Assembly: GCA_963921275.4 (NCBI GenBank)
Contig: OZ001293.3
Location: forward strand, 6,368,001 to 6,432,000
Direction: 5' to 3'
DNA: 64,000 bases
DNA from: an uncultured Hormoscilla sp.
GTDB lineage: Bacteria; Cyanobacteriota; Cyanobacteriia; Cyanobacteriales; Desertifilaceae
Made by a program: the position numbers and the translations under genes. This document shows, in pieces, positions 36,456 through 38,142 of this stretch (its first letter is position 1; every line of letters starts with the position of its first letter). The notes below the pieces were generated by a model. It was not told the origin of the DNA. It did not search any database and worked only from the letters and a program-made list of their open reading frames with translations.

Positions 36456-38142
36456 TTAGCGATAAACTTGAGGACCAGCCCAAGCGTGGTTGACTAGATT
36501 ACCAAAAATTAGCGGTCGATCGTCCGTTGCCATAAAAGTTTTGTCCATGGAATCTACCGCAAAGATTGACCAGTCGTCTTCACCCAAGTTGCCAGTGCGG
36601 AACAGAACTTGACCGGGATAGTTTTGAGACCACCCCAGCAATATAGCATGGGTATAGGGGTCACTATCGGGAGTAATAGTGCTGGTGCTGTTAGACTGCC
36701 GGTCCCAAATCACCGCATAATCCGATACATTGGAAGAACTAAACAGACCTTCAAATTGCCGTCCCAGAATGCGATCGCCCGTTGGGGACCAAGCTACTGG
36801 AATCAACATCGTAATCACTCCGGGCAAAAGTGAGTCTTTGTTAGTCTTATAGGGATTATGGGCCAGGGGAGACGCCGCTGTAATCACCTGCAAATCTCCA
36901 GTTTTGAGATTTTCCAGAAACATCACACTACTGACACGACTCCGGTACAACTCCGGCTGTACTTGTAGCTGGATCCGGCTATAGGCAGCATACTCACCAT
37001 CTGGGGAAACCAATGAGAGACTACGGTAATGGCGGATCCCCGAACCAACGGTTTGGCTAACTTCAGCATGTGTTTTCATTACCCAATTCCAGGGTACTGG
37101 ATAGGGACTATTGAGAGGATCCTCCTGCTGGAATGATGAACCTGGGCTGAAAGTAGATGCGGACACTTCCTTAGCTTTAACCGGTGCTGAAGACCCGAAC
37201 ATCCGATCGGTGAGAGCAGATGGTCTGGCCAGCAGCAGAGCAGTTGTCAATAGCAACAGAAATGGCTTTGGGTAGTGCGATTCGTTCTAGTCTAACGTAG
37301 GCAACTACGGAACGCTAGGCCAGGTCCAAACTGGTAACTCTGGTATTCATGGGGGTTAGATTCCCTCTCTCCAAGTGTGGGAGTAACACCGGTCCTTAGT
37401 GCTGCTGAGTCACATCACGGTGGTGCGGAGCAAGGACTTAAATGTAGGATAGCTAGCAGCCTAAGCTAGTGACGCCGCTAGGAAAGATGCTAATGGCTAG
37501 AACAAGCGAACCTGTGTACGCCTCGTTATCTAGAACCAGCGAAATAAGGCTTAAAGCGCTGGCCCAAAAGGGAAATGGTAGTTTGTGCTGGTTCTTGCAC
37601 TTGGCCAGTATCGCACTCTAAGAACTCCCGGGGTATAGCAGGGGCCTAAAAGCATCGTGAAATGATACTAGGGAACGAAGTAACTTCTCGTGTGCTGTCT
37701 AGATTGGACAAGTTAGATGTAAAGCGCAAGCCGCGAGGGGAAAGATAGCCCGAGAAGCTAATGCCTAGGGTAACGCCTATGGATATGATGGGGTGTTCCT
37801 CATCCAGCTGACGCGGGTTGGTTAAAGTAGGAAATCTTGGGTAAGAGTATCTCTAAGACGCCGGAGGCCTCTCGAAGGTTGGATGACTGGTAAAACAGAC
37901 TTGGAAATGGTAATACTAAAGGTTATCTGGCAGCGCCGCTTACCAACCAGGAAAGGAGTGAAATCGCATGAGATGAGGGACAAGTGGAGCAATCCGTAGT
38001 AATCCTAGTAGTGACAATGCCCTACTTGCCAGTAGCCGGATGCGGTGAAAGTCGCACGTCCGGTTCCGAATGGGAGAGTTAGGGGGTGACCCCTAGCTCG
38101 ACCCCGACTAAACGAACCTGAATTAATTAGGCGCTTGAACAT
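36456..38142 (-). pseudogene. Conserved secreted hypothetical protein interrupted by antisense intron A1 (segments 38110-38142 and 36456-37274)
   Basis: Removing 37275-38109 gives in-frame MFKRLINSGSF|YPKPFLLLLTTALLLA...SPYPVPWNW...SPDGEYAAYSRI. Confidence 0.8.
37275..38109 (+). mobile_element. ORF-less group II intron, family A copy 1 (835 nt)
   Basis: 5' GTGCG; domain V AGCCGGATGCGGTGAAAGTCGCACGTCCGGTT; domain VI hairpin with bulged A; differs from copy 2 at the two positions I could find. Confidence 0.92.

Follow-up and report, generated by a model that had tools for sequence, protein, structure and literature searches.

Two recently expanded group II intron families without open reading frames, probably copied in trans at guide-matched sites in a Hormoscilla genome

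The window analyzed here is a stretch of 64,000 nucleotides (nt) from an uncultured cyanobacterium, Hormoscilla sp. (assembly GCA_963921275.4, contig OZ001293.3, positions 6,368,001 to 6,432,000, forward strand), and it holds six copies of two intron families, termed A and C. We consider it very probable that A and C are recently expanded lineages of group IIB introns lacking an open reading frame (ORF), that they occupy sites matched by their own guide sequences, and that they were most likely copied by intron-encoded proteins (IEPs) borrowed from introns bearing a reverse transcriptase (RT). When the family changes, guide and flank change together, and their complementarity covaries across the 54 lineages of the clade. 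One to three mismatches are tolerated, the copies are near-identical, insertion into other introns has occurred repeatedly, and genes have been split.

Families A and C are compact introns with defined boundaries

Both families open with the 16-mer GTGCGATTCGTTCTAG, which occurs six times in the window against 0.08 expected; none of 100 shuffles reached six. Every element started by this 16-mer ends in a match to the Rfam model of domains V and VI (RF00029), with scores of 44.4 to 47 bits (A, 47; C, 44.4) against a gathering score of 40. The group II 5' end GUGYG appears as GTGCG at all six starts in the window, while GTGTG was found in 1 of the 212 A and C copies genome-wide. Family A extends from GTGCG to CCCCGACT over 835 nt and family C from GTGCG to CCCCATCC over 871 nt, and both boundaries are unambiguous when filled and empty paralogous sites in the genome are compared. 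A preliminary description of this window had counted six near-identical copies within 20 kb, and this count is correct: two A and four C, one C nested in another, span 37275 to 56822.

The same description called the elements ORF-less, and this too stands. None of the A copies contains an ORF of at least 80 amino acids (aa), and a genome-wide RT search gave no RVT_1 match inside A or C. Judged by these sequence features, A and C are ORF-less group II introns, and the position of their guides assigns them to subgroup IIB (see below). The A and C elements, with their exon-binding sites (EBS), are as follows (coordinates, strand, feature, basis).

37275-38109, plus: A1, family A ORF-less group IIB intron, 835 nt (5' GTGCG; RF00029 match at 38031-38108, 47 bits; paralogous empty sites)
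37527, plus: candidate EBS2a of A, T (covariation of position 253 with flank position -14)
37529-37533, plus: EBS2 of A, TCTAG (logo of its intron-binding site IBS2; covariation)
37596-37601, plus: EBS1 of A, TGCACT, terminal loop of a domain I hairpin (logo of 56 sites; covariation; compensatory changes in the stem)
37636, plus: candidate EBS3 of A, U362, partner of the first base of the 3' exon (covariation; +1 is A in 51 of 56 sites)
38034-38065, plus: domain V of A1, AGC triad and GAAA loop (regular expression, within the RF00029 match; pairing by eye)
38775-39609, plus: A2, family A copy, sense, inside domain I of intron B (twintron)
39743-40613, minus: family C copy, 871 nt, antisense inside intron B
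42256-43996, minus: C-in-C twintron, both copies antisense to B, interrupting the IEP frame of B
42256-42358 plus 43230-43996, minus: outer C of the twintron, 870 nt
42359-43229, minus: inner C of the twintron, 871 nt
55952-56822, plus: family C copy, antisense within a minus-strand adhesin-like gene, which it splits
56206, plus: EBS2a of this C copy, T
56208-56212, plus: EBS2 of this C copy, TAAGG
56275-56280, plus: EBS1 of this C copy, AGACTC
56315, plus: EBS3 of this C copy, T

By eye, a candidate bulged A was also seen in domain VI, 8 nt before the 3' end.

Guides and target sites switch together between families

TGCACT of A and AGACTC of C fall in the same alignment columns, at the loop positions that the preliminary description had given. 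Its pairing counts were reproduced by hand: the C flanks GGATCT (55952, plus), GGTTCT (40613, minus), GTGTCT (outer copy, 43996, minus), and AAGTCT (inner copy, 43229, minus) each pair at 5 of 6 bases, and the A flanks TGGGTA (37275) and AGCGTA (38775) pair at 4 and 5 of 6. The exchange goes further than had been described, since EBS2 is swapped between families alongside EBS1 (TCTAG in A versus TAAGG in C).

Extending the count and the flank logo to the whole genome gave 72 A and 140 C copies with flanks complementary to their own loops. After copies sharing a flank were collapsed, 56 distinct A sites and 112 distinct C sites remained. The A sites read AGTG(C/T)A at IBS1 (-6 to -1) and (C/T)T(A/G)GA at IBS2 (-13 to -9), with A at -14 in 34 of 56 and at +1 in 51 of 56. 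The C sites read G(A/G)GTCT at IBS1 and C(C/T)TTA at IBS2, with A at -14 in 52 of 112 and at +1 in 83 of 112. Read as reverse complements, the logos reproduce the loops of the family concerned (TGCACT and TCTAG for A, AGACTC and TAAGG for C), and at variable logo positions the other base seen is one with which the guide base can form a G-U wobble. Both families also favor A at -15 (39 of 56 and 80 of 112 sites), with which no intron column covaries; this A may be a protein contact common to A and C.

We scored pairing over 11 positions. With their own guides, A sites averaged 8.75 pairs and C sites 8.89. Exchanging the guides lowered the means to 4.79 (A sites with C guides) and 4.71 (C sites with A guides), while 20,000 random genome sites gave 4.23 and 4.05 with the A or C guides. 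Complete pairing was rare, seen at just 6 of the 56 A sites and 4 of the 112 C sites. The commonest scores were 8 and 9, and most sites carry one to three non-pairs in 11, which bears out the relaxed targeting proposed earlier. Because the copies are very young, these mismatches are likely original rather than the product of later decay.

Covariation across 54 lineages recovers the guide positions

To locate the partners of the flank without prior assumptions, we scanned 54 lineages (clusters at 96% identity) and, for each flank position, sought the best-complementary of 302 variable alignment columns. Flank positions -1 to -6 selected intron positions 322 to 327 (EBS1), which pair in 83 to 96% of lineages, and positions -10 to -13 selected 256 to 259 (EBS2; 87 to 91%). 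Flank position -14 selected position 253, with pairing in 47 of 54 lineages, 44 of them Watson-Crick and with all four Watson-Crick types represented. The first base of the 3' exon (+1) selected position 362, which pairs in 49 of 54. For six of these pairs (-1, -6, -10, -13, -14, and +1) we ran 400 permutations, taking the maximum over all columns, and the observed value was matched in zero or one of 400; for both -14 and +1 it was zero. Flank position -9 behaved differently: no covariation with position 255 was found across the lineages (65%; 400 of 400 permutations reach this value), though the two pair within A and C.

The scan picks 322 to 327 by itself, and the stem closing this loop has compensatory changes, with 7 of its 8 pairs present as more than one Watson-Crick type among 22 distinct clade sequences. 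The helices examined in this way were the EBS1 hairpin and one neighboring helix. The hairpin therefore occupies the EBS1 position, and the logos, the guide swap, and the covariation all speak for the RNA-guided insertion that had been suggested.

Position 362 lies 35 nt past EBS1, and the base adjoining EBS1 is outside the top three columns for +1. Such a distant partner is the EBS3 arrangement of subgroup IIB, as opposed to the delta base beside EBS1 that takes this part in IIA. Position 253, two bases upstream of EBS2, corresponds to the EBS2a-IBS2a pairing of IIB1 and IIB2 introns. That the -14 pair is conserved in an ORF-less clade argues for selection for RT-assisted DNA targeting, and we regard this as the best argument available at the sequence level.

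Copies are numerous and young

A blastn search identified 243 full-length loci genome-wide: 72 of A (at least 98.9% identity), 140 of C (at least 98.6%), and 31 diverged relatives (68 to 94%). Copies that share a flank with another copy make up 16 of the 72 A and 28 of the 140 C, for example in nine copies of intron B and in a repeated adhesin-like gene. Profiles of the clade's termini found 405 5' ends and 416 3' ends, which pair into 398 elements. Of these, 331 are 700 to 999 nt long and together comprise 288,180 bases, or 4.1% of the 7.03-Mb genome. The genome also contains 93 RVT_1 matches; in 22 cases the match has no internal stop and lies in an open frame of at least 550 aa.

Copies differ from their family consensus at a mean of 1.6 (A) and 1.4 (C) positions, and exact matches to the consensus number 13 among the 72 A copies and 61 among the 140 C copies. 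Across four genomes of the same genus, the best matches reach 82% for A and 93% for C; at the identity seen among their own copies, both families are missing there. An A-specific 32-mer had no match in a collection of representative genomes; records of the genome itself were excluded, so this result covers only other representative genomes. A conserved 25-mer of the clade was found in at least 55 stretches outside the genome, and all among the matches listed are Hormoscilla sp. metagenome-assembled genomes. Hormoscilla is a genus of sponge symbionts. Together with the absence of A1 from a contig of a diverged strain (see below), the sequence data support the recent spread of A and C, in line with the earlier proposal.

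That A and C are "sister" families is too strong a statement. They are homologous and count as two among the 54 lineages of one clade, with about 72% identity to each other; A has closer relatives within the genome, at 90 to 94% identity.

Some individual arrangements deserve mention. Family C forms head-to-tail arrays with zero bases between copies, three copies at C1:5447656-5450267 and two at C1:824935-826676, in which a matching 5' flank precedes the first copy alone. These arrays fit reuse of the 5' exon of an occupied site, which would need tolerance of G at +1. At C1:3918043, a relative with 94% identity to A is missing roughly 40 nt, among them the 5' half of the EBS1 hairpin; it is probably a dead copy. 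Of the 56 distinct A sites, 40 have the element on the plus strand of the assembly (binomial p 0.0018), a preference present in every megabase bin, while C shows no such bias (50 of 112 on plus). The GC skew of the chromosome was too weak to place the origin or define replichores.

Guides change between close relatives

Each diverged relative in the genome has its own loops and matching flanks. One carries EBS1 TCTATC with the flank GATAGA, and another carries EBS1 TTAGAA and EBS2 CCCTT with the flank AAGGGATTTCTAA. Two sub-lineages have a common EBS2 and differ at three EBS1 bases, with their flanks changed accordingly, which suggests stepwise mutation. In a genome of the same genus, relatives of C at 91 to 92% identity use different guides (EBS1 TCTAGA, EBS2 AGTAA), and their two flanks (TTTAGG and TTTGGA at IBS1; TTATT and TTACT at IBS2) pair at 6 of 6 and 5 of 5. 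Guide identity between lineages is about 0.25 to 0.37 at any scaffold identity from 70 to 97%; these values are approximate, as the EBS2 window was one base off.

Intron B is a repeated target and is being disabled by family C

Four of the six copies in the window, A2 and three C, lie inside an RT-bearing intron, B.

38537-44386, plus: intron B, RT-bearing host intron, 5850 nt, or 2403-2404 nt without nested introns (5' GTGCGATTCGTTTAG at 38537; RF00029 match at 44310-44386, 57.6 bits)
40843-42297, plus: IEP gene of B, truncated to 484 aa by antisense C (RVT_N, RVT_1, and GIIM; Pfam)

Intron B is present in nine copies of at least 99.6% identity at nine different sites. Its intact IEP, read from the frame in the copy at C1:2406680, is 600 aa long and ends in a motif that by eye is HNH endonuclease-like. 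For the IEP in the window, the best relative of known structure is chain C of 6ME0, the Thermosynechococcus TeI4h protein (E 1.5e-95).

The same site in domain I of B holds A in seven of nine copies. At least four different A haplotypes are found there, which implies repeated homing rather than inheritance. The IEP gene carries an antisense C toward its 3' end in eight of nine copies, in two cases as C-in-C, and only one of the nine keeps the full 600-aa frame. Non-autonomous C is disabling autonomous intron B. Lying antisense, C cannot be spliced from B RNA. Where C copies share a site, their haplotypes for the most part equal the consensus and tell us little. The site of the C copy at 39743-40613 is empty in the other eight B copies and in contigs of sequencing runs X1, X2, X3, X6, and X7 (joint 39742|40614). 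Across the genome, C-in-C occurs at five places.

Intron B and a 2,505-nt intron at C1:6623488 were considered as ORF-bearing parents of A and C. Both were rejected, having only short stretches in common with the two families.

Weighing the evidence for mobilization in trans

In the mechanism that we propose, RNA of A or C would reverse splice into DNA at sites matching EBS1, EBS2, EBS2a, and EBS3, and it would be reverse transcribed by IEPs borrowed from RT-bearing introns of the same genome. New lineages would arise when guide mutants find unoccupied targets. This scheme supposes that A and C RNAs still splice, that insertion proceeds by retrotransposition with an RT supplied in trans, and that the helpers would be some of the 22 long RT frames described above.

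Several points weigh against this account. Direct evidence of splicing or mobility was not found for A or C, and the relatedness of the 54 lineages means that the covariation counts overstate the number of independent events. At 8 A sites (of 56) and 10 C sites (of 112), no more than 7 of the 11 positions pair, and the copies at such poorly paired sites may not splice. A permissive search with the Rfam models of domains I to IV stayed below threshold (22 bits against 36 for C, no match for A), and the 3' ends, ...GACU and ...AUCC, differ from the common AY. No ORF remnant was found in A or C, where tblastn with two IEPs matched the domain V overlap only. Neither does the genome hold an RT-bearing intron close to A or C outside domains V and VI and the EBS2 region, where short stretches are 75 to 87% identical. 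With no close RT-bearing intron and no ORF remnant, the helper cannot be named.

The absence of direct evidence for splicing or mobility would suit the idea that both families are recently dead relics of one past burst, now inert, that neither splice nor move. Long open frames hold 26 of the 112 C sites and 6 of the 56 A sites in antisense, and splicing from the mRNA of these frames is impossible; most sites have mismatches that would weaken splicing; and the IEP frame is cut by C in eight of nine B copies. On the other hand, domain V is intact, and 61 of the 140 C copies match the consensus exactly. Different A haplotypes at one site of near-identical B copies imply that insertion continued while A was diversifying, one extra C is present in only one of nine B copies, and 22 long RT frames have no stop inside the RT match. 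We therefore find the relic explanation improbable. A single 167-nt contig from the metatranscriptome X20, the one RNA library found, might be taken for the missing evidence of splicing in vivo: it joins 37274|38110 and skips exactly 835 nt, the skipped segment ends GT..CT, the cut is unambiguous, and contigs of the DNA-type runs X1 to X3 run from flank into intron and show no such joint. The X20 contigs, however, come from a strain about 3 to 4% diverged from the window in unique DNA, and the one lacking A1 has a 3-base insertion, so the joint can be an empty site in another strain that may simply lack A1. The neighboring gene is on the strand opposite A1, the contigs carry no strand, and an RNA library can contain DNA. 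This further point counts against our preferred account, and we think it unlikely that the joint is a spliced product of A1.

Growth at the DNA level, by segmental duplication, recombination, or a transposase, would leave the loop match as a splicing requirement at a few ancestral sites. Such copying is visible in the 16 A and 28 C copies that share a flank, in the nine B introns and the repeated adhesin-like gene. As the source of the families it is extremely improbable, given 56 and 112 distinct flanks with base-exact boundaries, no target-site duplication or terminal inverted repeat at the ends inspected, and filled and empty sites that differ by the intron alone. The flank consensus is confined to guide-paired positions, and the swap control and covariation point the same way. 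We likewise give very little weight to a protein that reads a flank motif and chooses the site, with EBS complementarity secondary. The A at -15, present in both families and explained by no variable intron column, is what such a protein might recognize. All other informative flank positions follow the family loops and covary over the 54 lineages, -14 and +1 included, and a motif read by a protein would stay the same in families that most likely have their helpers in common.

A bolder form of mobilization in trans, which we rate as less likely than not, is a self-sustaining radiation of non-autonomous group II introns. It would comprise no fewer than 54 guide lineages and upward of 330 copies but no surviving ORF-bearing parent; a new subfamily would form whenever the 13 guide bases change on a scaffold 90 to 97% identical, and the parasites would disable their helpers. 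If true, this would be the densest and most dynamic natural bacterial system for watching introns multiply and retarget, and ready material for reading the whole IIB targeting code, with EBS2a as part of it.

Comparison with known systems

Mohr, Ghanem, and Lambowitz 2010 (PMC2882425) describe ORF-less TeI3 and RT-bearing TeI4 group IIB1 introns in Thermosynechococcus elongatus. There, 17 ORF-less introns in six families outnumber the ORF-bearing ones, the families differ in EBS1, EBS2, and EBS3, mobilization in trans is ascribed to "driver" IEPs, and twintrons and some poorly matched sites occur; as the host is a thermophile, heat was proposed to aid DNA melting (PMC2882425). The likeness to our system extends to the ORF-less majority, guide-defined families, intron-in-intron insertion, some poorly matched sites, and an IEP in the window closest to TeI4h (6ME0). 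The scale differs (17 ORF-less introns in six families there versus 331 paired elements in 54 lineages here), as do the mismatches (mostly 0 to 1 there, mostly 1 to 3 here), and the ORF remnants and close ORF-bearing parent described there were not seen here. TeI3/TeI4 is the closest precedent; the logic of the mechanism is already known, and here it is met at exceptional scale. The analogy that the preliminary description drew to SINEs and MITEs is fair, although the same logic had been described for Thermosynechococcus (PMC2882425). Like those elements, A and C are short, non-autonomous, dependent on machinery encoded elsewhere, and present as young, near-identical subfamilies. Unlike them, A and C are ribozymes and pick their targets through base pairing, and the ends inspected showed neither terminal inverted repeats nor target-site duplications.

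According to the sections of Monachello et al. 2021 (PMC8643678) that treat it, the EBS2a-IBS2a interaction is a single Watson-Crick pair between exon position -14 and the base immediately upstream of EBS2, is needed for DNA integration and not for splicing, and is stabilized by the RT; it was shown in EcI5 and seen in cryo-electron microscopy of Th.e.I3. Position 253, two bases before EBS2, stands in the same relation to flank -14 in 47 of 54 lineages. In those sections the pair is without statistical support in organellar ORF-less introns, whereas it is clear here in a purely ORF-less bacterial clade. Its retention fits a remark in the same source that ORF-less introns under selection for mobility should keep the pair.

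In the part of the survey by Miura et al. 2022 (PMC8919778) that reports copy numbers, the maximum among 1,790 representative bacterial genomes is 101 group II introns, in Arthrospira platensis. The same part places the highest loads in cyanobacteria with CL-type IEPs and notes that ORF-less introns rise in certain genomes. Set beside that record, the 331 ORF-less elements of one clade found here, in addition to 93 RT matches, are about three times as many. Our search of an open-access library found no paper there containing both "Hormoscilla" and "group II intron."

How a cell could come to hold group II introns at high density is a central question for the origin of spliceosomal introns and of non-long-terminal-repeat retroelements. 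To our knowledge, the only well-studied bacterial case has 28 introns. Methanosarcina acetivorans, an archaeal host, reportedly has nested ORF-less and RT-bearing introns in few copies; here, by contrast, C is antisense in B and truncates the IEP in eight of nine copies. The 168 independent, very young A and C sites and the 54 guide lineages amount to a natural mutagenesis of EBS1, EBS2, EBS2a, and EBS3. They show a mobility-specific EBS2a pair retained in ORF-less introns and mismatched sites in routine use. The host bears a cost, as genes are split by antisense insertions, the adhesin-like gene in the window being one of them.

Genomic context and further observations

The 56 A sites comprise 20 sense, 6 antisense, and 30 with no long frame; the 112 C sites comprise 29, 26, and 57, respectively. 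For 1,500 random sites the counts were 432, 444, and 624. A1 itself lies just upstream of, and antisense to, the minus-strand ORF at 36456-37256, and the frame joined across its site runs only 15 aa beyond the junction.

When the C copy at 55952-56822 is removed, a single frame is open again; it continues for 113 aa upstream of the junction and measures 947 aa within the 5 kb examined. The interrupted adhesin-like gene is on the minus strand and has DUF4347, LRR, and cadherin repeat domains (Pfam). At 52768-55851 (minus) and 57252-58000 it has 585-nt tandem cadherin-type repeats, segments from 52449-53058 recur at 57515-58000 with 85 to 99% identity, and read depth places it in a multi-copy gene family. 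Contigs of runs X2 and X3 join 55951|56823 at depths of 505 and 299, where unique DNA has about 70 and 23. Multi-copy depth in both runs ruled out a polymorphism at the 55952 locus as the explanation of this joint and points to paralogous intron-free copies of the gene as its source.

Runs X5, X6, and X7, which bear other organism labels, contain pieces of A and C with zero differences and the flanks of other copies, together with little of the unique DNA around A1. Likely, the high-copy introns of a rare organism assemble in these runs while its single-copy DNA does not. Elsewhere in the window, a full-length match (169.5 bits) to IsrR, the antisense RNA that regulates isiA, lies at 4492-4678 on the plus strand.

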